Shown: in pieces, positions 11,699-64,000 of the stretch
Numbering within the stretch: position 1 is the stretch's first letter
Layout: the number at the start of each line of letters is the position of its first letter
DNA from: Thermoflexia bacterium
GTDB lineage: Bacteria; Chloroflexota; Anaerolineae; B4-G1
Direction of reading: 5' to 3'
Length of the DNA stretch: 64,000 nt
Assembly (NCBI GenBank): GCA_011192155.1
Contig: DUEK01000004.1
Span: 1-64,000, forward strand
Notes under the pieces: model-generated
The model's input: only the letters and a program-made list of their open reading frames with translations
Database searches by the model: none
What the model was told of the DNA's origin: nothing
Program-made: the position numbers and the translations under genes

Positions 11699-11954
11699 CA
11701 CGGACAAACACGGGGCTGTGCACACGAATTTCTATTGAGATCAGCAGCTTGTCGGAGTGAAATCGTATCTTCTCAATATTCCGGGATGATTATACCGTAG
11801 CCGCGATTTCTATATCGCGCCAGCCCCGTGAGGTATGGAAACCTTGGCTGCATTGCCCCGACTTTCGCCGGATTTGACAATCCGGCGAGAGCACACTTTG
11901 TGTGACAAGTCTCTCCGATAGACTGCTAGTCCGTGAAATTCGTGTTTGTCCGTG
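11699..11954. repeat. about 256-bp inverted-repeat-bounded element (MITE-like candidate) in 666-bp intergenic region
   Basis: 14-bp inverted repeats CACGGACAAACACG at 11699..11712 and 11941..11954, with adjacent partial inverted CACGAATTTC extension. Internal palindromes, including a fragment matching the 121-bp MITE core (GTAGCCGCGATTTCTATATCGCG at 11797..11819). Confidence 0.35.
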
Positions 11955-31751: not shown

Positions 31752-31763
31752 TACGGCTTCTCC

Positions 31764-31916
31764 TTGCGACTGGAGTCTGGCAAATTTTCAGAATGCCCAC
31801 ATCTTGGGGTAGGCAACAATAAAGGCGCTAGATATGGGGGTTCGTAGTAGCGGCTTTAGCCGCTTTTGAGCCTTTTGGACGGCTGAAGCCGTCACTACGA
31901 ACAAAAACGCCAGACT
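31764..31916 (-). promoter_or_regulatory. about 150-nt structured 5' leader of the PTS gene (nested inverted repeats)
   Basis: Outer inverted repeat GACTGGAGTCTGGC (31764..31777) / GCCAGACTCCAGTC (31903..31916), the former abutting the RBS. Inner imperfect inverted pair TTCGTAGTAGCGGCTTTAGC / GCTGAAGCCGTCACTACGAA. Confidence 0.35.
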
Positions 31917-32009
31917 CCAGTCACTTAAACTAGCTTGCAATTTTTTTCATCTCTGGTAAACTTTTACCCTGCCGCCGTTGGGCGGCGTCTTTGCGGCAAG
32001 TGAAAGGGC

Positions 32010-33575
32010 ATGGTAATGAAACGATTGCAGCATTGGTCGCTTTTGGCTAGGGTGTGCGCGTTGTGCGTCATTGCCGCCTGCGCGCGCCCCGCGCCTGAAC
32101 AAGAGCTTGAAGTTGTCGAGCAACCGGACTCTTCCACGTCACTTTCCCCTGTGCCTACGCCTACGGTAGTTCTTTCCCCCGCCTACCCCGGCGCATACAC
32201 GGGCACGCCCACGCCCAATCCACCGCCTGCCGGCAATCCCAACGGCGAGGGTGTGGAATCATACGTCGTGCAGCCGGGTGAGACGTTGAGCCTGATCGCG
32301 GCTGTGTTTGGCTGCACCGTCGAGGAGATCGCCGCTGCCAGTGGTTTATCCGATGCGAACAGCATCGGCGCCGGTCAGGCGCTCTACATCCCCACCGCCG
32401 CCACCGAGACCGGTCCATACCTCAAGCTGATTCCCGATAGTGAACTGGTCTATGGCCCGGCCTACATCTACTTTGACCTGGCGGGTTTTGTGGCCGAACA
32501 GGATGGCTACCTGGCGGGCTACAGCGAGCAGGTCGAGGGCCGCACTCTCAGCGGCGCAGAGATCGTGCAGCTCGTCTCTCAGCGCTTTAGCGTGGGGCCG
32601 AGGGTGTTGCTGACGCTGCTGGAGCTGCGCTCTGGATGGGTCACGCAGCCCCAGCCGGCCGAAGAGACACTCACCTTCCCGCTGGGCTATGTCCAATCGT
32701 ACCACGAAGGACTGTTCCAGCAGCTAAGTTGGGCGGCGGTGCGGCTCAACGAGGGATACTATGGCTGGAAGCAGGGCGACCGCGCGACGGCGCGCGTGCG
32801 CACAATGCGCGTGAGCAACGGAATCCGCGCCTCGTTCGCGCCGGGGCTTAATCCGGGCAGCGCCGGCGTGCAGAACTGTCTGGCCGAACTCTCCGCCACT
32901 TGGGACGAATGGCTGACGCTGATCGGCCGCGATGGTTTTGCGGCTACCTACGAGCGGTTTTTCGGCAATCCCTTCGCTTATGCGGTGGAACCGTTGCTGC
33001 CGCCCGATTTGGCGCAGCCAGAGTTGCATTTGCCGTGGGAGGCCGGGTATACGTGGTATTTCACCGGCGGCCCGCACGGAGGCTGGGGAAACGGCAGTGG
33101 CCGCGCCGCGCTCGACTTTGTACCGGGTGACAAGATACCGGATTGCACACTCTCGAAAGAGTGGGTGGTTGCCGCCGCGCCGGGGCTGGTCTTGCGCAGC
33201 AATTATGGGGAGGTGCTCGTGGACCTGGACAGTGATGGTTTTGAGCAGAGCGGCTGGGTGTTGCTCTATATGCACGTCAATGCCCATGACCGTGTGGCAG
33301 TGGGCGCGGCGCTACAGCGCGGCCAGCGCATCGGGCATCCTTCCTGCGAGGGCGGCTACGCCGAAGCGACGCACCTCCACTTTGCCCGCCGCTACAATGG
33401 CGAGTGGATCCCCGCCGGCAGCGGCCTGGCACCGATGGTGCTTTCTGGCTGGACGGCCCACGAGGACGTGATGCCCTACGACGGCGCGGTGACGCGCGGC
33501 GACGAGGTGCGCGAGGCCTGCGAGTGTTGGAACGAGGAAATCAACGGCCTGGTTTCAGATAACGCCAGACCTTGA
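32010..33575 (+). CDS. LysM + M23-family metalloendopeptidase lipoprotein
   Basis: Lipobox VIAAC, Pro/Thr-rich linker, LysM (YVVQPGETLSLIAAVFG...), C-terminal M23 motifs (HGGWGNG...D, HLHFA). Confidence 0.8.
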   Translation: MVMKRLQHWSLLARVCALCVIAACARPAPEQELEVVEQPDSSTSLSPVPTPTVVLSPAYPGAYTGTPTPNPPPAGNPNGEGVESYVVQPGETLSLIAAVFGCTVEEIAAASGLSDANSIGAGQALYIPTAATETGPYLKLIPDSELVYGPAYIYFDLAGFVAEQDGYLAGYSEQVEGRTLSGAEIVQLVSQRFSVGPRVLLTLLELRSGWVTQPQPAEETLTFPLGYVQSYHEGLFQQLSWAAVRLNEGYYGWKQGDRATARVRTMRVSNGIRASFAPGLNPGSAGVQNCLAELSATWDEWLTLIGRDGFAATYERFFGNPFAYAVEPLLPPDLAQPELHLPWEAGYTWYFTGGPHGGWGNGSGRAALDFVPGDKIPDCTLSKEWVVAAAPGLVLRSNYGEVLVDLDSDGFEQSGWVLLYMHVNAHDRVAVGAALQRGQRIGHPSCEGGYAEATHLHFARRYNGEWIPAGSGLAPMVLSGWTAHEDVMPYDGAVTRGDEVREACECWNEEINGLVSDNARP

Positions 33576-33599
33576 AGGTTTCAGAAAACCCTCAAGGTC
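33568..33599. repeat. REP-like hairpin, family B (GACCTTGAAGGTTT-CAGA-AAACCCTCAAGGTC)
   Basis: Overlaps the stop of the + strand M23 gene and lies 0-18 nt from the stop of the convergent minus-strand gene. Bidirectional terminator-like. Confidence 0.55.
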
Positions 33600-34918
33600 T
33601 TTATCCGCGAGACAAAGTCGGCCAGAGAAAATTCGTAGCGGTCGGCAAAGTTGTCGGTAGGCAGGGATAGGGTGAGGGTCAGGTCTTGCAGGTCGTAGAC
33701 GATGGTCCATTGCGTGGAGGTGTGAACCGCGGCCATCACTTCCATCATTTCCTCGGTATCTATCTGTCCGTCTCCATCTTCCAGCGCGCCGACGGCGGTC
33801 TGGTAGCGTGGGCAATCGGGTTGGTCGGCGGGGCCGGCCCAATGGCTGTTGGTCATCACCTGATAGGCGGTATCCGCGCGGCTGACCACCACTCCCTCGG
33901 CCAGGAATTCTACGACGGCGGATGCGCCGCTGCGATCGGCCAGCAGGACGTGGGTGCCGAACTGAGGGCTGAAGGCAAAAGGAATTTCCTGTAGCAAACT
34001 GATCGCTTCTTCTACATCGGCGCAAGTTTCCAAAAGGATGTGATAGACTTGCAGGTCTATCAGCGCCGGATGCGTACCGGTCGGATAGCCGGCCGCGTCT
34101 ACTGCGGCGACGCCGAGCGCCAGTCCCTGGTCATTCATTCCATCAAAAGCGGTAAAGTTGGGCGCGCCGACGGTCATGACGACGTTGGGGTAGGCGTCCT
34201 CTGGGTAGGCAAAGACGAGCGTTGTTTGGGGCATACTGCTGTTCCAATCGTTGTTGCGACCCAGACGGGCGTGGCCGTCGGCCGTCATCTCTGGCCGGGC
34301 AAAGGCAACGCTGCAAAAGGGGTTATACACCACGCCCGGCAGCAAAAAGCTCCACCAATCATCCCAGACCGGGATGCCCTCGCTCACGTCATCCAGGTTC
34401 AGGTCGTAAGCGGCATAGATACCGCGCATTTGTTCGACTGTACCTGTATGAACCTCTGTGTACAAGTCGAGCATCGCGTGGGCGGTTTCTTGTTCGTCGG
34501 CGGTGAGCGGGCGGGGGGAGAATCGCTGCTCCTGGTACCATTCGCCAAAGGCTTGGCCGATTTCCTCATAGGTTCCAGCCACCTCGATTTTCTCCAGCGG
34601 ATAGCTCGAGACGATTTTCTCGGTCGTCCAGTAAGCGCCAGCGATGGGGGTGGGAGTAGGTTCTGGCGTGGGAGTGGCGGTGGGGATCTCGGTGGGCGTC
34701 GGTGTGGGCACGTTTGTCGATGTGGGGAGCACTGTGGCGAGGGCGGCATGGGTTGCTGGAGGAAAGGGGTTAAAGGGCAGGCGCGGGTTGATGGCAATGG
34801 TGAGGTAACAGCAACTCAAGGCAGCGGTGGCGACAAGGGTGAGGATGGTGAGGATGTTGGGGAGCGAGGGCTTACCTTGTTCTTGCTGAGAGAGGGTCTC
34901 TTTTAATTTGGATAACAT
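33581..34918 (-). CDS. secreted Ntn-hydrolase-like protein (C45 / choloylglycine-hydrolase-like fold, tentative)
   Basis: 445 aa. Signal/TM, Pro/Thr-rich linker. NPFCSVAFA putative self-processing Cys and GRNNDW motif. Confidence 0.4.
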   Translation of the reverse strand: MLSKLKETLSQQEQGKPSLPNILTILTLVATAALSCCYLTIAINPRLPFNPFPPATHAALATVLPTSTNVPTPTPTEIPTATPTPEPTPTPIAGAYWTTEKIVSSYPLEKIEVAGTYEEIGQAFGEWYQEQRFSPRPLTADEQETAHAMLDLYTEVHTGTVEQMRGIYAAYDLNLDDVSEGIPVWDDWWSFLLPGVVYNPFCSVAFARPEMTADGHARLGRNNDWNSSMPQTTLVFAYPEDAYPNVVMTVGAPNFTAFDGMNDQGLALGVAAVDAAGYPTGTHPALIDLQVYHILLETCADVEEAISLLQEIPFAFSPQFGTHVLLADRSGASAVVEFLAEGVVVSRADTAYQVMTNSHWAGPADQPDCPRYQTAVGALEDGDGQIDTEEMMEVMAAVHTSTQWTIVYDLQDLTLTLSLPTDNFADRYEFSLADFVSRIKTLRVF

Positions 34919-44821: not shown

Positions 44822-44848
44822 TCAAGCGGGGCAAATTGGCAATTTGCC

Positions 44849-45901
44849 CTACGTGTTGATGTTGGGAGTTTCGGGCGATTCGACCGGCGGTGGCACCGGC
44901 GCGGGCGGCGTGTGAGCTATGGCGCCAAAGCGAGTTAGCGCCACAGCGCCCAGTCCCAGGCAGCCCAGGACGAGGGTCAAGAGTACCCCCAACACACCCA
45001 GGCAAGGGAGCACGCCTAGCCCGGTCGTCACTAGCGTGATGAGCAATGTTCCCAGTCCGGCGGCCCACAGCGGCGCGACCGCGCGGACATTGAGCGCCTG
45101 CATCAGCCGCTGGCCCACCAGAGCGCCAACGCCGATCCAGCCGAACAGCCCGGCCACGCCCAGGGCAAGCGCGACCAGCATCGCGATTGGCGAGAGACAG
45201 ATCGTGACCAGCAATGCAATGGCGAGCGCCACGGCTGCAAAAGCGGTCAGCAACCCTATCCCCAAGCTGGCCCCCGGCGACTCGACCACAGTCCGCCCGA
45301 CCCGCATTACCTGCTGCGGCCAGATCAGCGCCGCCAACCCGGCCACCGCAGAGATCACCAGCACCGAGGCCACACCTCGTATCACATTGAGCGCCCAGGT
45401 AACGGCCTGTCCTGCGCCAGAGATCGAAAAAGTAGGTGGAGAGGGAAGTACGGGGACAGGGATGCCGTACCAGTGTTCAGAGGGGAATTCGCCCAAAGGG
45501 ACGCCCTCAATGATTCCTCCATCCACCTGCGCTCCATCCTCTTGATCGAGGTCGCAGTTCCAACTGCATACTACGTTTCCGCCCACTTGTGCGCTATCGC
45601 CCAGGTAGATGTCACCGCCAGAGACGACCAGTTCTCCCTTAATGTCGCCCTGCGCCTCAACATTGCCGTTCCAGACAATGACAGAGCCGGCGACGCGGCT
45701 GCCGGGTTTCAGAGTCACGTCACCATCAAAGACGACCAGGTCGCCGTCCAGCCGCTCATCCTCTTCCAATGCATAGTCCTCGCCCCAGATAGTGATGCCG
45801 CCGTCGCCGGGCGGGCTGCCATCCGCTAGCGCTGGCGCGATTGGAAAGTACAACCCCAATGCCAGTAGTGCGATCAACCACATGATCCATCGTTTATACA
45901 T
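44849..45901 (-). CDS. membrane protein with bactofilin-like (DUF583 beta-helix) N-terminal domain and multi-TM C-terminal domain
   Basis: Repeats GDVTLKPGSRVAGSVIVWNGNVEAQGDIKGELVVSGGDIYLGDSAQVGGNVV, then Ala/Leu/Gly-rich TM region. RBS GGAGGAAAAT. Confidence 0.5.
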   Translation of the reverse strand: MYKRWIMWLIALLALGLYFPIAPALADGSPPGDGGITIWGEDYALEEDERLDGDLVVFDGDVTLKPGSRVAGSVIVWNGNVEAQGDIKGELVVSGGDIYLGDSAQVGGNVVCSWNCDLDQEDGAQVDGGIIEGVPLGEFPSEHWYGIPVPVLPSPPTFSISGAGQAVTWALNVIRGVASVLVISAVAGLAALIWPQQVMRVGRTVVESPGASLGIGLLTAFAAVALAIALLVTICLSPIAMLVALALGVAGLFGWIGVGALVGQRLMQALNVRAVAPLWAAGLGTLLITLVTTGLGVLPCLGVLGVLLTLVLGCLGLGAVALTRFGAIAHTPPAPVPPPVESPETPNINT

Positions 45902-45915
45902 AATTTTCCTCCATA

Positions 45916-45947
45916 GACCTTGAGGGTTTCAGAAAACTCTCAAGGTC
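45916..45947. repeat. REP-like hairpin, family B (GACCTTGAGGGTTT-CAGA-AAACTCTCAAGGTC)
   Basis: Intercistronic, between the DUF4097-like stop and the bactofilin-like RBS. 30/32 identical to the copy at 33568. Confidence 0.55.
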
Positions 45948-45948
45948 T

Positions 45949-46836
45949 TTAATCAGAGATTTCTATCAGATGCAGCGTGCCTACGCCTGTTGTAACCTCG
46001 ATGCGCAGTTCTACCTCCGCTTCGCCAAAGGCGGCGTTGACGTAGGTATCACCATCGCGCTCCAGGCCCGACGCATTCACGTTAGAGAGTCCTCCCTCCA
46101 CGTCAACCTGCACGCCCACGTCGTCAGGCAGCCGCAAGGTGAGAGCGCCGACGCCGGCCGTGACGCGCACGTCGGCCGAGCGAGACCAATCTCCGGTCAG
46201 GTCCAAGTCGATGTTGCCCACGCCGCCCTGCACCTTTATCATCTCTGGGCTGGCATTGCCGATTCCGACCACTTCCAATCTCGAGGCTCCGGCATCCAGT
46301 GTGAGATCGCCCATCTCGGCCCCGTTCGGCTCACCGAATTGCACCGAGAAATCGCCTGCGCCCAGGTCCAGGTCTAGTTTCACGAGTTGCAAGCCTGTAA
46401 GGTCCAGGTTGCCCTTGCCCGCGCCGACTTGGAGGTTCACATCGAGCGGTATTTCGGGCGAGAATTCCAACTCCCACTCATTGCGAGTGTTTCCGGTGGG
46501 AAAGCCCCACTCTTCGTCGGCGCCGCCCTGCTCAATGGTTAGTACGTGGGCCGCATAGGTCACTTCCGGCTCCCATTGTTCGACGTTGTAGCGAAAGTGC
46601 CCAGAGAAGAGTTGATCGGAAGCACCGGCCTCGATCTCTAGATCTCCCGCGCCAAAAGCAAGCTCTACGGCAACCGGCTCGTCATCCTCGAGGGGGATCG
46701 CCTCCCGTTTGTCCTGCATCTCGCCGACTTGGATTGTTGGCACTTTGATGTCTGGTACCTGCGGCGGCTCATCGCACGCAATTTGGCTGCCCAGCAACAA
46801 GAGCAGCGCCAGTATGATTGTGATATACTTTTTCAT
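45949..46836 (-). CDS. lipoprotein with DUF4097/toast-rack-like beta-repeat domain (LiaG-like putative adhesin)
   Basis: Lipobox GSQIAC. Repeated G-x-G-x-L/D beta-strands (VGAGKGNLDLTGLQLVKLDLDLGAGDFSV...). Confidence 0.5.
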   Translation of the reverse strand: MKKYITIILALLLLLGSQIACDEPPQVPDIKVPTIQVGEMQDKREAIPLEDDEPVAVELAFGAGDLEIEAGASDQLFSGHFRYNVEQWEPEVTYAAHVLTIEQGGADEEWGFPTGNTRNEWELEFSPEIPLDVNLQVGAGKGNLDLTGLQLVKLDLDLGAGDFSVQFGEPNGAEMGDLTLDAGASRLEVVGIGNASPEMIKVQGGVGNIDLDLTGDWSRSADVRVTAGVGALTLRLPDDVGVQVDVEGGLSNVNASGLERDGDTYVNAAFGEAEVELRIEVTTGVGTLHLIEISD

Positions 46837-46858: not shown

Positions 46859-47506
46859 TCAAATTTGTTTGATTTGAGAATCTAGCATCGCGTTGCGCGC
46901 GCGGCGCACTGCGCCTATCCATAGGCCGTTCAACGTCAACGTCATTGCCAGCCCACACAGACCCAGGAAGGCCAAGGGGACGGCGACGGTTTCCATCAAG
47001 ACCAGCAGCGCGCGCCCCACTGATCCCAGGAAAGCGAGCAACTGCACGATGGTCGTCGGGCCGCCGCTGACGAGGGCCGGCAGGATGCCGGCTATATTCG
47101 AAAAATCCGCAAAAATGGGGGCCGGCAGGATGCCGGCTATATTCGAAAAATCCGCAAAAATGGGGGCCGGCAGGATGCCAGTCGCGTCCAAAAAGCCCAC
47201 AAAGATGGGAGCCAGCGCCAGCAGCGCCAGCGACACCGTCCCCAGGGTCAGCGTCGCGCCGCCGACGACCGCGCGACGGGCCTGATCTCGGCGAGCCAGG
47301 CGCGTCATCACCTGTACGCGCACGCGGAGCGGGGGTTGCACCATCGGCGCGGCGGAGAACAGGGTATCAAGTGCCTGCAGGCTCTGCCACCCGGCCTGAC
47401 ACGCGCCGCACGCGGTCAGGTGTTCGTCCAGGAGCGCGCTATCTGCGTCATTGAGACGACCATCCAGCCGCTCGGACATCATTTGACCAGCCTGTTTACA
47501 TCGCAT
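46859..47506 (-). CDS. anti-sigma factor, zf-HC2 type, single-pass membrane, with internal tandem 15-aa repeat
   Basis: HLTACGACQ zinc motif, TM segment. GILPAPIFADFSNIA repeated (45-bp DNA tandem repeat 47077..47181). Overlaps the ECF sigma gene by 11 bp. Confidence 0.7.
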   Translation of the reverse strand: MRCKQAGQMMSERLDGRLNDADSALLDEHLTACGACQAGWQSLQALDTLFSAAPMVQPPLRVRVQVMTRLARRDQARRAVVGGATLTLGTVSLALLALAPIFVGFLDATGILPAPIFADFSNIAGILPAPIFADFSNIAGILPALVSGGPTTIVQLLAFLGSVGRALLVLMETVAVPLAFLGLCGLAMTLTLNGLWIGAVRRARNAMLDSQIKQI

Positions 47507-48080: not shown

Positions 48081-48321
48081 ACGTGTGCTCCCACCCCGGC
48101 CCGAATACTTCCAGGCAGTCTATATACGCACCAATCTTGGCAGGGTTGCAGGTTATTTTCGTTGTTTAGAGTGGGTTTGTCAAGTTTGAGTTGTCTGGTG
48201 ATTACCCACAAATATGCAGATGTCAGGTGATCGTTTTTTCACCACAGAGGCACAGAGGACACTGAGCCTATATTTCGCATCCTGGCGCAGCCTATTTGTG
48301 TCTTTTTCAAAAAGCGGGGAA

Positions 48322-48356
48322 AGAAACCAGGTTTTTCAGAAAAAAACCTGGTTTCT
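48322..48356. repeat. REP-like hairpin, family A (AGAAACCAGGTTTTT-CAGAA-AAAAACCTGGTTTCT)
   Basis: 15-bp perfect arms. Located in the 750-bp divergent intergenic region, not at a gene end. Confidence 0.6.
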
Positions 48357-48553
48357 CACTGGCCCAGACGGCGAATCTGCCCAAGTTGGGTTTGGAAGAA
48401 CAAAGTGTCAAGCCCCAAATCAAGCTGTCCAGAGGTGCGGAAAATAGGCTGAGACAGGGTATTTTTGTGTTTTCTTTCTCTACCGTACACTTTGTGATCA
48501 CGAATAACACAAATGAACAAATGACACGAATCTGTGTTGAAATGAATAAAAAA

Positions 48554-48674
48554 CAGCAACTCCCGTTATGGGGGAAAAGTCAGGTCGTAACCGCGATTTC
48601 GCAATCGCGCAGGGCGCTTTACGCGGAAAAACAGACGCGATTTGGAAATCGCGGCTACAAAACGGGAATTGCTG
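48554..48674 (+). mobile_element. 121-bp MITE-like element, copy 1
   Basis: CAGCAACTCCCGTT...AACGGGAATTGCTG terminal inverted repeats. Internal nested palindromes. About 95% identical, in inverted orientation, to 62908..63028. Confidence 0.6.
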
Positions 48675-48831
48675 AGCTGTGGTGAGATGTGGGTAATCAC
48701 CAGTGAGATGTGCTTTGGTGCAACACGCCTACACTTTGGGTTTTCATTCAGGTGTGATAAAATAGCGACCTCACAATGGGAACAATACACAGCTTGAGCA
48801 ACAGAGCAATTTCCGGTGGGCGAGGTGCTTT

Positions 48832-53476: not shown

Positions 53477-53847
53477 TCCAGTTCCTTTTTGGGCTTTTTG
53501 ATACAGAATTGCACCACTGCTATCCGGCGAGCAAGCGAGAGAGACTCTCTCCCCGATGATGACAACAGGATACCACAAAAGGAGCTGACGGGAGTTGCGA
53601 TGCAGTTACGATTTGGTTAACGCACTGCAGGACGCTGCTCAGGGGGTATAATCTGTGGAGATCCGGAATCTTGGCTGAACATTTGTTCCCTACTCCCTAT
53701 TTCTACATTTGGCAGACAACTTTTCCCATGATATACTGGCGTAAATTGCTCTACTGTAACATATTCGAGAGACATTGCCAATCATCCAACCGGCGGCGGG
53801 CGAACCCTCGCTGGACGGCTACAAATAATCATCAAGGAGGAAACACC

Positions 53848-55614
53848 ATGACCCTAAACCTGGATGCAATCGGCAAGAAAATCGGTCCCATCACTACCGA
53901 GTACAATTGGAAGGACATCGTCCTCTACGCGCTGGGCGTGGGGGCCGGCTTTGACGAGTTGGAATACGTCTACGAAGACCGGCTAAAGGCGATCCCGTCT
54001 TTTGCCGCCACCGCCCTTTACGATTTTCTGGGTGAGTTTGTGGCTATCACGGGCGTCAACCTGGCAGGCATCCTTCATGGGGAGCACGATCTGATTTTCC
54101 ACAATCCCATTCCCCCAGAGGGCGGTGCGCTCACCAGTGAGGCGCGTATCACCAATATCTACGACAAGGGCGAGGGCAAGGGCGCGCTGGTGATCGGCCA
54201 GGTGAATACTTACCACGAGGATGGGCAAAAGCTGTTCACCAACGTCGCCACCCTGTTTTCCCGGCTGGATGGCGGCTTTGGCGGCGAGAACGCGCCCCGG
54301 ACGACGTTCGAGTTCCCAGACCGGGAACCGGATTTCGAGGAACTAGCGCAGCCCTCAGCCGACCAGCCTCTGACCTACCGGCTTTCGGGCGACACCTTTG
54401 CTTTGCACGTTGACCCCGACTTTGCTCAGATGAGCGGCTTTGAGCGACCCATCATGCATGGCCTGTGTACCCACGGCTACGCCTGCCGCGCCGTCATCAA
54501 ACATCTGTTCCCCGGTGAGCCGGAGCGGATGACGCACTTTCGCAATCGCTTTTCCAAGGCGCTCTATCCGGGTACGCCGATCAAGACCCAGATATGGCAA
54601 GTCGAGGAAGGAAAAGCTCTTTTCAGAACCATCAACGTCGAGACGGGCAAGGCGGTACTCGATCGGGGCGTGGTCGAGTGGATGAGCCGGGGGGAGGCGG
54701 AGAAGCGAGGTAAGGGCGGCATTCGATTTGACAGCCAGGTAGCCATCGTCACCGGCGCTGGCGGCGGCCTGGGCCGCGTCTATGCGCTGGAATTGGCGAA
54801 ACGGGGCGCCAAGGTAGTGGTCAACGACCTGGGCGGCGCGCGCGATGGCACGGGTAAAGGCTCCGCCCGCCCCGCCGACGCGGTTGTGCAGGAGATTCAG
54901 GAGGCTGGCGGCGAGGCGGTCGCTAACTATGACTCGGTCGCCACGCGGGAGGGGGGCGAGGCAATCGTCCAGACCGCGCTGGATAGCTTTGGCAAGGTGG
55001 ACATCCTCATCAACAACGCCGGCATCCTGCGCGATAAATCCTTCGCCAAGATGACGCCGGAGCAATGGGACGGTGTGCTGGCGGTACATCTGCAAGGGGC
55101 CTACAACGTCACCGCTCCGGCTTTCCGCGCCATGCGGGAGAACGGCTATGGGCGCGTGGTGATGACCACCTCGGCGGCGGGGCTGTTCGGCAACTTTGGG
55201 CAGGCCAATTACAGCGCGGCCAAGATGGGACTGGTGGGAATGATGAACACACTCAAGCTGGAGGGAGCCAAGCACAACATCAAAGTCAACACCATCGCGC
55301 CCCTGGCCGCTACCCGGCTGACGGAGGACGTCATGCCGCCCGATATGCTGAAAAAGCTCAAGCCGGAAATGGTCGCGCCGCTGGCGCTCTATCTCTGCGC
55401 GGAGCAGTGCGCCGAGAGCGGTCTGGTCGTGAACGCCGGCGGCGGGTTCTTTAGCCGAGCGGCGGTGGCCTCTGCGCCCGTCGTGCAGGTTGGTGACGGG
55501 CAGCAAGCGCCCACGGTGGAAGAGATTCACCGTCACTGGGCCGAAATTGACAGCCTGGAAAGCAGCCGGCAGTATCAAGATGCCAATGCAATGTTGATGG
55601 ATATGCTGGCGTGA
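53848..55614 (+). CDS. bifunctional MaoC-like (R)-hydratase (double hot-dog) :: SDR 3-hydroxyacyl-CoA dehydrogenase fusion
   Basis: N-terminal hot-dog pair, C-terminal SDR (VAIVTGAGGGLGRVYAL, NNAG, YSAAKMGL). Start at MTLNLD with RBS AAGGAGGAAACACC. Domain order is the reverse of eukaryotic MFE-2. Confidence 0.8.
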   Translation: MTLNLDAIGKKIGPITTEYNWKDIVLYALGVGAGFDELEYVYEDRLKAIPSFAATALYDFLGEFVAITGVNLAGILHGEHDLIFHNPIPPEGGALTSEARITNIYDKGEGKGALVIGQVNTYHEDGQKLFTNVATLFSRLDGGFGGENAPRTTFEFPDREPDFEELAQPSADQPLTYRLSGDTFALHVDPDFAQMSGFERPIMHGLCTHGYACRAVIKHLFPGEPERMTHFRNRFSKALYPGTPIKTQIWQVEEGKALFRTINVETGKAVLDRGVVEWMSRGEAEKRGKGGIRFDSQVAIVTGAGGGLGRVYALELAKRGAKVVVNDLGGARDGTGKGSARPADAVVQEIQEAGGEAVANYDSVATREGGEAIVQTALDSFGKVDILINNAGILRDKSFAKMTPEQWDGVLAVHLQGAYNVTAPAFRAMRENGYGRVVMTTSAAGLFGNFGQANYSAAKMGLVGMMNTLKLEGAKHNIKVNTIAPLAATRLTEDVMPPDMLKKLKPEMVAPLALYLCAEQCAESGLVVNAGGGFFSRAAVASAPVVQVGDGQQAPTVEEIHRHWAEIDSLESSRQYQDANAMLMDMLA

Positions 55615-55698
55615 AACATCAAACGTCAAGCGTCAAACGTGAAACGTGAAACGTCAAACGTCAAGCGTCAAACGTGAAACGTCAAATGGGAAACGTGA
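55611..55698. repeat. tandem array of GTCAAACG/GTGAAACG heptamer-based units (about 2 x 30 bp)
   Basis: Sequence gtgaaacatcaaacgtcaagcgtcaaacgtgaaacgtgaaacgtcaaacgtcaagcgtcaaacgtgaaacgtcaaatgg. Starts at the stop codon of the MaoC-SDR gene. Confidence 0.6.
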
Positions 55699-55709
55699 GA
55701 GAGGAAACG

Positions 55710-56213
55710 ATGAACTATGAGGAGTGGGTCGCAACGGTGCCGGAGGAGATCAAAGCTGATTCCCTCTGGAAGATGACCGCCTACCGGTTGGCGTTGTTTC
55801 TGGGTGATCTGGGGTGGTATGATACGGCAAAGTTAGTGCGAAACCGGCACTTGACTGGCCTGTCTGACCAGTTGTACAGAGCTTTAGGATCCGTCAGCGC
55901 CAATCTGGCCGAGGGATACTCACGAGGCTCCGGCAAAGATCGCGCCCGTTTCTACGAATACTCTCTCGGTTCTGCCAGAGAAAGCCGGGACTGGTACTTT
56001 AAAGCCCGGCACGTTCTTGGTGAAGTCGTTTTCCAACACCGCCTACAGTTGCTCACTCGGGTGATCCAACTCCTTCTAACTACGATCCCCCAACAGCGCG
56101 GTCGTGCGCTGCGGGAACGACCAGGGACCTATCAAGTAGCCTATGACGAAGCGAACGAGGCGTTGGAATCCCTGCTCCAACACGTCCCCCTTCCCGATTC
56201 GGATGACGAATGA
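55710..56213 (+). CDS. four-helix-bundle protein (TIGR02436; 23S rRNA intervening-sequence-protein-like)
   Basis: 168 aa. Diagnostic LGSVSANLAEGYSRGSGKDRARFYEYSLGSARESRDW segment. RBS GAGAGGAAACG. Confidence 0.75.
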   Translation: MNYEEWVATVPEEIKADSLWKMTAYRLALFLGDLGWYDTAKLVRNRHLTGLSDQLYRALGSVSANLAEGYSRGSGKDRARFYEYSLGSARESRDWYFKARHVLGEVVFQHRLQLLTRVIQLLLTTIPQQRGRALRERPGTYQVAYDEANEALESLLQHVPLPDSDDE

Positions 56214-56237
56214 CGTTTGACGAATGACGTTTGACGG
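56204..56237. repeat. inverted-orientation GTCAAACGTC repeat pair (GAATGACGTTTGAC x2)
   Basis: Immediately after the four-helix-bundle stop. Reverse complement of the CGTCAAACGTC units in the 55611..55698 array, so the gene is bracketed by inverted repeats. Confidence 0.55.
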
Positions 56238-62154: not shown

Positions 62155-62188
62155 GGAACATGAAACGTAATGTGTGCTCAGAGGTTAT

Positions 62189-62884
62189 GAGATGACTAAT
62201 ACCGTCGTTCAAATCAACACAGGCTTGGTCAATGTTTTCCTGATCCAGGGCGGCGCGGGCTGCATGCTGGTGGACGCCGGCAACCCCGGTCAGGCGGACC
62301 TCATCCTAAAGCAGCTGGCGGAGCATGACGTCGCTCCCGATGACGTGCGCCTGATCCTGATCACCCATGGGCACATTGACCACTTTGGCAGCGCGGCGGC
62401 CTTGCGCGAGCAGACCGGCGCGCCGGTAGCCATCCACGCGCTGGACGCCGTCGCCGCGCGGCAAGGCGCCCATCAGCCGGATAGCCTCCAACCGACGAAC
62501 CGCTGGATCGGCTTGGCAATGCGGTTTCCGTTCCTCCATCTGCCCAACCGCGCCCCAGCCTTTGAGCCGGACGTGGTGATTGAGGAAGAATGGCGATTGG
62601 ACGAGTACGGCATCGCCGGGCGGGCGGTTCACACGCCGGGGCATACACCCGGCTCTATCTCGGTGCTGTTGGACGGCGGCGAGGCCATTGTCGGCGATAT
62701 GGTGATGGGCAAGCTAATGGGGCTGATCCGCAAGCCGGGGCCGCCCGTCGTCGCCTGGGATTTGGAGCAAAACCAAGAGAGTGTGCGCCAGTTGCTGGCC
62801 CTCTCGCCGCGCGTGGTGTACGTTGGGCACGGCGGCCCGTTTCGGGCCGAGGACGTATCCGCCGAGTGGAACACCCAACCCTGA
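62189..62884 (+). CDS. MBL-fold metallo-hydrolase
   Basis: HxHxDH motif (ILITHGHIDHFG), downstream His/Asp ligands. Start MTNTV with GAGG 9 nt upstream. Confidence 0.75.
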   Translation, partial: EMTNTVVQINTGLVNVFLIQGGAGCMLVDAGNPGQADLILKQLAEHDVAPDDVRLILITHGHIDHFGSAAALREQTGAPVAIHALDAVAARQGAHQPDSLQPTNRWIGLAMRFPFLHLPNRAPAFEPDVVIEEEWRLDEYGIAGRAVHTPGHTPGSISVLLDGGEAIVGDMVMGKLMGLIRKPGPPVVAWDLEQNQESVRQLLALSPRVVYVGHGGPFRAEDVSAEWNTQP

Positions 62885-62907
62885 ATTTTCAGATATGCTC
62901 TTGGCTG

Positions 62908-63028
62908 CAGCAATTCCCGTTTTGTAGCCGCGATTTCCAAATCGCGTCTGTTTTTCCGCGTAAAGCGCCCTGCGCGATTGCGAAATCGCGGCTACGACCT
63001 GACTTTTCCCCCATAACAGGAATTGCTG
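62908..63028 (-). mobile_element. 121-bp MITE-like element, copy 2, with 9-bp target-site duplication
   Basis: Terminal inverted repeats CAGCAATTCCCGTT / AACAGGAATTGCTG. Flanked by direct repeats TCTTGGCTG at 62899..62907 and 63029..63037. Inverted relative to copy 1. Confidence 0.7.
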
Positions 63029-63111
63029 TCTTGGCTGAACGACGGCGAGCGTATCCTAAAACGGAATTTGTGTTATAATCTGTGAAATCTTTATAGGAGG
63101 AACAAGCTACC

Positions 63112-64000
63112 ATGAACCCGATTCAAAAACGTATTGACGCGATGAATCAACGAGTGGCCGATCTCCAGCAGGCGGGGCTGTATTTCTATCTACAACCCCT
63201 GGATGAACTTGACGGGGCCTGGGTCACGACCGGCGGGCGGCGCATGTTGAACTTTGCCTCCTACGGCTACTTGGGCCTGTTGGGCCATCCGAGGATCGAG
63301 GCAGCAGCTCAAGCGGCGCTGGCCCGCTACGGGACCGGCACTCACGGCGTCCGCATCCTGGCCGGCACGCTGCCGCTGCACAACGAACTGGAGCAGACCA
63401 TCGCCCGCTTCAAAGGAGCCGAGGCAGCTATCGTCTATTCTAGCGGCTACGTCACCAACTTGGCGACCGTATCGTCGCTGGTGGGCCGCAACGACACGGT
63501 CATCTGCGACAAGTTCAACCACGCCAGCATCGTTGATGGCTGCCTGCTCAGCGGAGCCAAGTTCGCGCGCTTCCGTCACAATGACATGGCCGGCCTGGAA
63601 AAGAGGTTACAGCAAGCCAACCCCGGCGCTGGCACACTGGTCATCGTGGACGCCGTCTTTAGCATGGATGGCGACGTCATCAACATGCCCGAGGTCAGCC
63701 GGCTGTGCCGCGAGTACGACGCGCTGCTGATGGTGGACGAGGCCCACAGCCTGGGAGTGCTGGGCGAGAAAGGGCACGGCATTGAGGAACACTTTGGGCT
63801 TGAAAAAGCGATTGACGTGTATATGGGCACGCTCTCCAAGACGATCCCCAGCGTCGGCGGGTACGTGGCGGGAAGCCAAGATTTGATCACCTACCTGAAG
63901 CACGTGGCGCGAGCGTTTGTCTTTTCGGCCGCGCTGCCCCCGGCCCAGGTGGCTGCGGCCAACGAATCGTTCAAAGTAATAGAGGATGAGCCAGAGCGGG
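63112..64000 (+). CDS. class-II aminotransferase (8-amino-7-oxononanoate synthase / 2-amino-3-ketobutyrate CoA ligase / SPT family), 3'-truncated by window edge
   Basis: Open frame from ATG 63112 to window end. PLP-lysine region (GTLSKTIPSVGGY), DEAHS motif. RBS GGAGGAACAAGCTACC. Confidence 0.75.
   Translation, partial: MNPIQKRIDAMNQRVADLQQAGLYFYLQPLDELDGAWVTTGGRRMLNFASYGYLGLLGHPRIEAAAQAALARYGTGTHGVRILAGTLPLHNELEQTIARFKGAEAAIVYSSGYVTNLATVSSLVGRNDTVICDKFNHASIVDGCLLSGAKFARFRHNDMAGLEKRLQQANPGAGTLVIVDAVFSMDGDVINMPEVSRLCREYDALLMVDEAHSLGVLGEKGHGIEEHFGLEKAIDVYMGTLSKTIPSVGGYVAGSQDLITYLKHVARAFVFSAALPPAQVAAANESFKVIEDEPER

Follow-up and report, generated by a model that had tools for sequence, protein, structure and literature searches.

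The DNA considered here is a stretch of 64,000 nucleotides from a Thermoflexia bacterium (GenBank assembly GCA_011192155.1, contig DUEK01000004.1), referred to below as the window, in which a 121-bp repeat occurs twice, as copies A and B (Table 1). Loci from other genomes, assemblies, or metagenome contigs that were compared with the window carry L-numbers (L003, L108, L195, etc.). [quoted passage not shown]

The 121-bp element and its surroundings

Both copies are intergenic. Copy A lies 24 nt past the stop codon of a gene for a metallo-beta-lactamase-fold hydrolase (62174-62884) and 84 nt ahead of an aminotransferase gene starting at 63112, and copy B is located between a gene for an extracytoplasmic function (ECF) sigma factor on the minus strand and a ThiS-like gene. 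The open reading frames (ORFs) 48296-48685 and 62590-63078, which extend across the copies, are spurious read-throughs of the repeat, as an initial annotation of this DNA had recognized for the peptides predicted there. The element is short (121 bp, <300 bp) and non-coding, as is characteristic of MITEs.

The near-perfect 14-bp terminal inverted repeats and the perfect 9-bp target-site duplication described in the initial annotation are confirmed. The repeats CAGCAATTCCCGTT and CAGCAATTCCTGTT match at 13 of 14 positions (15 of 17 when extended), and TCTTGGCTG, a 9-mer with four occurrences in the window versus 0.7 expected, stands on both sides of copy A. The last G of the right-type repeat (62924) doubles as the first base of the REP head. 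The predicted fold of the whole element is one long hairpin (RNA, -60.8 kcal/mol, z = -7.8 versus shuffles), and DNA folding gives z = -6.9 versus shuffled sequence. Copy B had been described as an inverted copy lacking a target-site duplication, which holds, and as about 95% identical to copy A, which does not, the true figure being 97.5% (3 of 121 positions differ). Together, A and B form the longest inverted pair of the window (125 nt, 97%), and their likeness ends exactly at the termini CAGCAATT...AATTGCTG.

The target of copy A can be reconstructed as the 12-mer TCTTGGCTGAAC, which, as previously pointed out, also occurs at 53669-53680 with no wider similarity of the flanks; its recurrence is probably a coincidence. 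At that position, it is found just downstream of a GGTATAATCTGTGGA box resembling the TGTTATAATCTGTGAA box downstream of site A.

Table 1. Coordinates of the 121-bp element, its parts, and a related doublet in the window.
Feature	Position	Strand	Remarks
Left 9-bp target-site duplication TCTTGGCTG	62899..62907		seen in the sequence; the empty site of L108 holds a single target-like copy
MITE copy A, 121 bp	62908..63028	-	IRR-type (right) end at 62908 and IRL-type (left) end at 63028, relative to the parent insertion sequence
IRR-type terminal inverted repeat CAGCAATTCCCGTTTTG	62908..62924	+	matches the right end CAGTAATTCCCGTTTTG of the L185 insertion sequence
REP unit GTAGCCGCGATTTCCAAATCGCG	62924..62946	+	GTAG head and hairpin; 23/23 identical to the REP flanking the transposase gene of L027
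Spacer between REP units, 26 nt	62947..62972		free doublet L017:2445-2515 is 80.6% identical across units and spacer
Second REP unit, inverted (GTAGCCGCGATTTCGCAATCGCG on the minus strand)	62973..62995	-	
Segment adjoining the IRL-type end, GACCTGACTTTTCCCC	62996..63011		unpartnered on the other arm; shared with the 42-bp mini element L156
IRL-type terminal inverted repeat (CAGCAATTCCTGTTATG on the minus strand)	63012..63028	-	compare the 20-bp ends CAGCAATTCCCGTTATGGGA of the L195 insertion sequence
Right 9-bp target-site duplication TCTTGGCTG	63029..63037		
MITE copy B, 121 bp	48554..48674	+	118/121 identical to A, opposite orientation, no target-site duplication
Copy B REP unit, mutated head (GTAACC...)	48587..48609	+	
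Copy B REP unit	48636..48658	-	
Independent doublet of the same REP class (GTAGCCGCGATTTCTATATCGCG and degenerate inverted partner)	11797..11860	+	not bounded by MITE ends

Target duplications, empty sites, and the parent insertion sequence

When one genome per species is scanned for the inner 23-mer GTAGCCGCGATTTCNNNATCGCG, at least 100 loci are recovered, all of them in Chloroflexota and mostly in metagenome-assembled genomes (MAGs) of Anaerolineae. Among the 100 matches listed are 22 complete copies bounded by the ends (23 end pairings), most of which have perfect 9-bp direct repeats and share no target sequence. A metagenome scan with the 19-nt end contributes 61 further loci. Duplications were counted over 64 non-redundant short elements with these ends from Chloroflexota genomes and metagenomes. 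The flanking 9-mers match at all nine positions in 39 copies, at eight in nine copies, and at seven in two, versus no copy with two or fewer mismatches in a control in which the left 9-mer is shifted by three bases. The terminal inverted repeats are conserved throughout the 64 copies, among which there is no target-site consensus. With many copies at unrelated sites and 9-bp duplications around them, the proposal of a non-autonomous transposable element is borne out.

The same counts bear on a reading in which the window copies are products of a local duplication in inverted orientation and the 9-mers around copy A match by chance. The window taken by itself would agree with it, as just two full copies are present in the 64 kb and copy B has no duplication. 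However, it is refuted by the copies and duplications in many genomes (dozens of copies, with 39 perfect duplications against none in the shifted control) and by the A/B similarity, which stops exactly at the terminal repeats, so that its probability is vanishingly small. The circumstances named at the outset as arguments against a mobile element are likewise absent: the repeat exists in more than two copies, the 9-mers lie outside any longer local duplication, and the repeat shows no synteny across genera.

Insertion points fall inside open frames of at least 150 codons in 20 of 45 cases versus 205 of 225 random positions. Long frames are avoided, which may reflect selection or targeting.

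Comparison of orthologous sites in relatives, already envisaged in the initial annotation, identifies an empty one in L108. This locus encodes a hydrolase 86% identical to that of the window and keeps the CobA-hydrolase-aminotransferase gene order, with the element absent; L107 keeps the same order and also lacks the element. The spacer between hydrolase and aminotransferase genes measures 101 bp in L108 and 52 bp in L107 versus 227 bp in the window. In the alignment, ATGCCCTTAAAACTGAACGACGACGAGCG of L108 stands opposite ...ATGCTCTTGGCTG (121 bp) TCTTGGCTGAACGACGGCGAGCG of the window, and L108 therefore has a single copy of the target and no element. An empty site was also sought in other assemblies of the source organism (L102, L104, L196, and L197), and none was found: L102 and L104 have the insertion at site A, and L196 and L197 have copy B at the same place in the same arrangement. 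The window itself corresponds, by a 100% protein match, to the MAG 'Anaerolineaceae bacterium 4572_32.2'. Two further candidate pairs of filled and empty sites, L057/L003 and L047/L072, were rejected, as their similarity stops short of the insertion point.

L101 (JGI 3300005264, Ga0073581_104518), from the same organism, was likewise rejected as an empty site in view of a 244-bp deletion or misassembly that retains most of the element. At L101:8090-8105, the 244 bp equivalent to window 63011-63254 are missing. The gap spans the left-type end of the MITE, a promoter-like box TGTGTTATAAT, and approximately 47 codons at the start of the aminotransferase gene, and its junction reads TTTTCCC|TGCC. 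It could be an assembly artifact at the repeat or a real deletion beside the element.

The orthologous comparison also weighs on the view that the repeat is a vertically inherited, non-mobile structured RNA or protein-binding regulatory module (operator or terminator), a view that must be regarded as most improbable. It draws on the very stable predicted fold, on a REP hairpin resembling a terminator, with a T-run, that lies 40 nt downstream of the stop codon of the hydrolase gene, and on the inner palindromes, which may bind a dimeric protein. Yet an Rfam search of the whole window at gathering thresholds returned zero family matches, the copies reside at unrelated loci with unrelated flanks, and the orthologous site is empty in a relative. 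The duplications mark insertion events, and a regulatory effect would be at most a secondary co-option. One such secondary role is possible for copy A, in which the first REP hairpin followed by TCTGTTTTTC fits a simple terminator pattern just downstream of the hydrolase gene and may act as one.

If the repeat is a MITE, its ends should belong to an insertion sequence (IS), and the initial annotation had proposed looking for a transposase gene bounded by the same ends. Such genes are found in other Chloroflexota and in metagenome contigs. With the metagenome pattern, built to leave out REP-containing copies, ~12 contigs were recovered that break ~120 nt into a different sequence starting with the same 19-nt end, and such breaks are the behavior of a multicopy IS. 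One contig, L178, runs on from the 19-nt end into an ORF with >8000 homologues of 410-436 aa, mostly on contigs of 1.6-2 kb. Full-length IS of 1.6-1.74 kb (L195, L194, L186, and L187-L193) have the MITE ends CAGCAATTCCCGTTATGGG, in the form CAGCAATTCCCG(T/C)T.... The L195 IS of 1618 bp fills a 1619-bp contig and has perfect 20-bp ends, the L186 IS of a Chloroflexi MAG is 1637 bp long with the ends CAGCAATTCCCGTTATG / CAGCAATTCCCGCTATG, and the L187-L193 IS of 1740 bp has the ends CAGCAATTCCCGCTACT. The last of these is flanked by the 9-bp duplications CTCCTGGGC and AACCGGGTA, with the same 9-mers on opposite sides in different contigs. In these contigs, the left flank belongs to one insertion and the right flank to a different one. 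The two MITE ends differ slightly, with TTTTG at 62908 and ATGGG at 63028. The right end of the L185 IS is CAGTAATTCCCGTTTTG, and the MITE ends at 62908 and 63028 therefore correspond to the right-type and left-type IS ends, respectively.

Four full-length transposases match the Pfam domain DDE_Tnp_1 (PF01609) with 24.7-27.4 bits at a cut-off of 23. The AlphaFold model of the transposase has a predicted local distance difference test (pLDDT) value of 84.5 and a predicted template modeling (pTM) score of 0.86. In Foldseek searches, the whole length of the predicted fold aligns with the Tn5 transposase (1mm8_A, E 5.9e-10, TM 0.57), and the Tn5 entries 1mm8_A, 4dm0_A, 3ecp_A, and 1mus_A together give E values of 6e-10 to 3e-9 with TM scores of 0.56-0.58; the next-ranked fold, piggyBat, is far weaker (E 3e-3). 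Of the Y(2)R(3)E(6)K signature, only part can be recognized in the consensus ...RGGRARWKIENETFNTLK..., where R-x3-E is present, the tyrosine two residues before is not conserved, and the lysine stands at +8, one residue further than in the signature. The parent is accordingly modeled as an IS4-like IS with a predicted Tn5 fold. It is designated IS4-like only, with no named IS4 subgroup, because the curated NCBIfam models score far below their cut-offs.

Several further searches were negative. There are no unpaired or distant element ends in the window and the 100 listed genome loci, and an all-against-all comparison of the listed loci reveals no long multicopy repeats. Viral contigs scanned with the 17-nt end gave 14 matches, which are due to chance and lie inside unrelated sequence.

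The REP doublet core and its shell

The initial annotation described the interior of the element as nested dyads. These dyads are present, as two inverted 23-nt units of the form GTAGCCGCGATTTC-NN-AATCGCG; however, they are not peculiar to the MITE and correspond to the GTAG REP units of a REP system with REP-associated tyrosine transposases (RAYTs). The 23-nt unit GTAGCCGCGATTTCNNAATCGCG occurs five times in the window versus 0.02 expected. It is found at no fewer than 100 Chloroflexota MAG loci, with 130 units listed, as singles, doublets, and arrays. More specifically, the units form single hairpins, head-out doublets with short spacers, and the core of several different longer repeats, and tandem arrays have periods of 28, 72, 80, and 127 bp. 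At first sight, the arrays in L041:3744-4132, L098, L180:1-500, L035, and L052 resemble CRISPR arrays. In all of them, however, the apparent spacers are themselves repeated. For the 72-bp-period arrays of L041 and L098, which are tandem REP doublets, the CRISPR possibility was rejected for this reason.

Covariation was assessed in partner units gathered by their GGCTAC end only and therefore unselected for pairing. The GTAGCC head is invariant and the TCC loop is kept, while the stem changes are compensatory (CGCGAT/ATCGCG, CGCGCT/AGCGCG, CGAGGT/ACCTCG, CGGGGTA/TACCCCG, and CGCGAAA/TTTCGCG). Pairing is observed for 89.7% of the stem cells versus 71% in shuffles, a value reached by none of 500 shuffles. 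Twenty-three stem cells are changed on both sides, and slid controls pair at no more than 47%.

The units are also linked to transposase genes of their own. L027 (398-940), L028, and L007 contain Y1_Tnp (RAYT-like) ORFs, with Pfam scores of 34.5-40.2 bits at a cut-off of 23, which have the HUH and Y-x-x-x-NP motifs and are directly bordered by the same REP units as in the MITE core. In L027 and L028, the TAG stop codon of the Y1_Tnp gene is provided by the GTAG head. The inner units thus fit the published definition of GTAG REPs and RAYT genes (PMC2817692, PMC3733652). The free doublet of L017, which has no terminal repeats, corresponds to MITE positions 17-88. As judged from sequence, the MITE interior is a pair of REP hairpins from a separate REP/RAYT repeat system and is not derived from the transposase.

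A stretch at 11797..11819 had been taken for a fragment of the element. Instead, it is the first half of the independent REP doublet listed in Table 1, which belongs to a different repeat of ~100 bp (11765-11865; partner unit at approximately 11837-11860) that is 89% identical to L003:5885-5983. The repeat in L003, another Anaerolineales MAG, carries 12-bp outer inverted repeats of its own, GTATCTTCTCAA / TTGAGAAGATAC, of which the right one is absent in the window. The 10-mer CTTGGCTGCA at 11843 was considered as a sign that the target duplication belongs to a larger motif, and this was rejected because the 10-mer is part of the degenerate REP partner (cctcggctac in relatives; homologues in L003, L062, and L067).

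The shell is separable from its core, and 9-bp duplications accompany the same ends around several other interiors. One is that of a 122-bp family containing a second GTAG REP pair (GTAGTAACGACTTTAGTCGTT / GTAGTAGCGACTTTAGTCGCT), which adjoins the opposite end compared with the 121-bp element. This second REP class also exists free, as doublets and in an 80-bp array. A 122-bp element at L034:48-169 has the same shell with G-rich hairpins and no REP, 91-bp forms hold one REP unit, and the 42-bp form L156 is barely more than both ends. Since shells without a REP core exist, the ends are the transposase requirement and the REP doublet is cargo. The different REP positions in the two families suggest at least two separate capture events. 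In the window, a head-out doublet of the second GTAG REP class (GTAGTAGCGGCTTTAGCCGCT / GTAGTGACGGCTTCAGCCGTC) is located at 31844-31898, within the intergenic region 31752-32009. It is of the core class of the 122-bp metagenome family and exhibits a compensatory A-T to G-C stem change.

On the basis of its core, the whole element might be thought of as a REPIN, a long-hairpin REP doublet copied by a RAYT via single-stranded DNA, in which the outer repeats are a mere extension of the hairpin. The core is indeed a true REP doublet from a REP/RAYT system, the whole element folds as one long hairpin, and other REP doublets also reside inside longer palindromic repeats (11765-11865 and L003). Nevertheless, this origin is highly unlikely. 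An exact or one-off 9-bp duplication is present in 48 of the 64 copies, a DDE IS that likewise makes 9-bp duplications has ends identical to the outer repeats, REP-less shells transpose with the same duplication, and free REP doublets lack these ends. Target duplications are not known for Y1 transposases of the IS200/IS605 type, including those that are RAYT-like.

For the preferred explanation, an IS4-like MITE with a captured REP doublet, the following course of events can be proposed. By analogy with the Tn5 paradigm, a Tn5-like DDE transposase supplied in trans would bind both ends and excise the element, which would then insert at 9-bp staggered cuts, with repair yielding the 9-bp duplication. 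Copy A entered the hydrolase-aminotransferase spacer after the split from the relative that still holds the empty site. Most likely, the REP doublet came into a minimal terminal-repeat shell, e.g., by insertion of a RAYT-mobilized doublet; alternatively, the core may derive from a deletion within an IS that had received a REP doublet. The composite of shell and REP would subsequently have been amplified by the DDE transposase. The duplication around copy B may have been lost by later rearrangement of the flanks or by recombination between copies.

Some observations weigh against this explanation. The flanks of copy B, AATAAAAAA and AGCTGTGGT, are unrelated to each other, as are the flanking 9-mers in 14 of the 64 copies. 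Part of these 14 are probably assembly chimeras, and the flank swapping in L187-L193 illustrates that an absent duplication in assembled contigs can have this cause. None of the curated NCBIfam IS-family models is reached by the transposase, with the best scores (IS4, IS1634, and ISAs1) at 16-20 bits versus cut-offs of 70-152 (IS4_2: 19 versus 152), and single-protein and profile searches of the PDB by sequence with the transposase yield no match. The IS4-family assignment is therefore one by Pfam domain and fold only. The 42-bp form may have arisen by deletion and need not be a precursor. No transposase with these ends was seen in the window or in the few other contigs of the source MAG that were covered, a negative that, for the window, is based on the top 25 Pfam families for 56 ORFs and is not a strict exclusion. 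Current mobility is not established because no transposase was found in the source genome. Continued mobility of the MITE in this lineage is nonetheless plausible, given the 97.5% likeness of A and B and the perfect duplication around copy A.

The element looks recently active, and as a kind of MITE, it is ordinary. The composite of DDE shell and REP core is less so, as the same shell took up at least two REP classes. It is conceivable, albeit rather unlikely, that DDE shell and REP doublet constitute a recurrent, selected architecture rather than an accident of nested insertion, with doublets of different REP classes coming into the shell time and again or becoming enclosed by newly formed shells. 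One reason might be that both the Tn5-like DDE enzyme and a RAYT, two transposases unrelated to each other, can move the composite. Another might be that the REP hairpins act as terminators or insulators and render insertions harmless, which would open to REPs a path of horizontal spread that REPINs are not known to have.

Other repeats in the window and comparison with known systems

The window harbors additional repeats. A third GTAG hairpin class, GTAGGGCAAATTGCCAATTTGCC, is found at 44830-44852 on the minus strand, with a similar unit in L045. Its GTAG head gives the TAG stop of the gene 44849-45901 (minus strand), as for GTAG REPs (PMC3733652). A 37-nt palindromic hairpin, AGACCTTGAAGGTTTCAGAAAACCCTCAAGGTCTTTA, occurs at 33567-33603 and 45915-45951 in two copies that are 95% identical, each at a gene end; it may be a further small dispersed repeat or a terminator common to both sites. 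Inside an anti-sigma (zf-HC2) gene (46859-47506, minus strand), a 45-nt repeat present three times in tandem at 47074-47208 (two copies identical and one at 73%) encodes the repeated peptide AGILPAPIFADFSNI. Tandem 7/14-nt repeats (CGTGAAA / CGTCAAA) at 55610-55707 and 56204-56236, with an inverted partner block 520 nt off, bracket the ORF 55674-56213, which has a 23S_rRNA_IVP domain (PF05635) in the annotation of L101.

The element and its parent represent a widespread MITE/IS pair, undescribed in the literature searched, for Anaerolineae, a largely uncultured group. The ends, the 9-bp duplication, and a candidate Tn5-like transposase are given, which allows direct annotation and testing of the pair. 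For annotation, these repeats matter in that they create spurious ORFs, break metagenome contigs, and give chimeric assembly flanks. In addition, GTAG REP/RAYT systems are abundant in Chloroflexota, and REP doublets can ride in a DDE-mobilized shell. REPINs are not known to be inherited other than vertically. A trans-mobilizable DDE shell would offer them a different route, which bears on the origin and spread of REP populations.

No description of a DDE-shell/REP-core composite or of these sequences was found in the literature searched, with ISfinder outside that search, and literature sequence matches to the end and the REP were unrelated primers only.

Bacterial MITEs derived from DDE IS include Nezha in cyanobacteria, Chunjie in Geobacter, MITEAba12, Correia/NEMIS, and RUP (PMC3184786, PMC3733652). 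The 121-bp element resembles these in being short and non-coding, in its terminal repeats that match an autonomous IS, and in its target duplication of fixed length, as well as in its many, mostly intergenic copies, its filled and empty orthologous sites, and its hairpin fold. In contrast to them, its interior is an inverted GTAG REP pair rather than a deleted IS remnant, and the shell accommodates at least two REP classes.

The parent shares with Tn5/IS50 and IS10 of the IS4 family a DDE_Tnp_1 domain, ends of 14-20 bp, a 9-bp target duplication, and, as predicted, the Tn5 fold. Duplications of 9 bp are made by both Tn5 and Tn10. However, the sequence identity to Tn5 in the structural alignment is ~12%, and no curated IS4-family model is reached. 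Furthermore, the ends described here begin with CAG, unlike those of IS50 and IS10, which begin with CTG.

REP sequences, bacterial interspersed mosaic elements (BIMEs), and REPINs are known together with RAYT (TnpA-REP) transposases (Nunvar 2010, PMC2817692; Bertels and Rainey 2011, PMC3116915; Di Nocera 2013, PMC3733652), and GTAG repeats in Chloroflexi have already been listed (PMC3733652). In Pseudomonas, degenerate GTAG units joined to unrelated stem-loops are described among the repeats flanking RAYT genes, and doublets enclosed in an IS shell are not described there (PMC3733652). The inner units of the element agree with REP/RAYT systems in their GTAG head and covarying palindrome, in their occurrence as singles, head-out doublets, and clusters, in giving TAG stops to adjacent genes, and in flanking Y1 transposase genes. 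Unlike REPINs, the complete 121-bp unit has DDE-type terminal repeats at its borders and generates 9-bp duplications.

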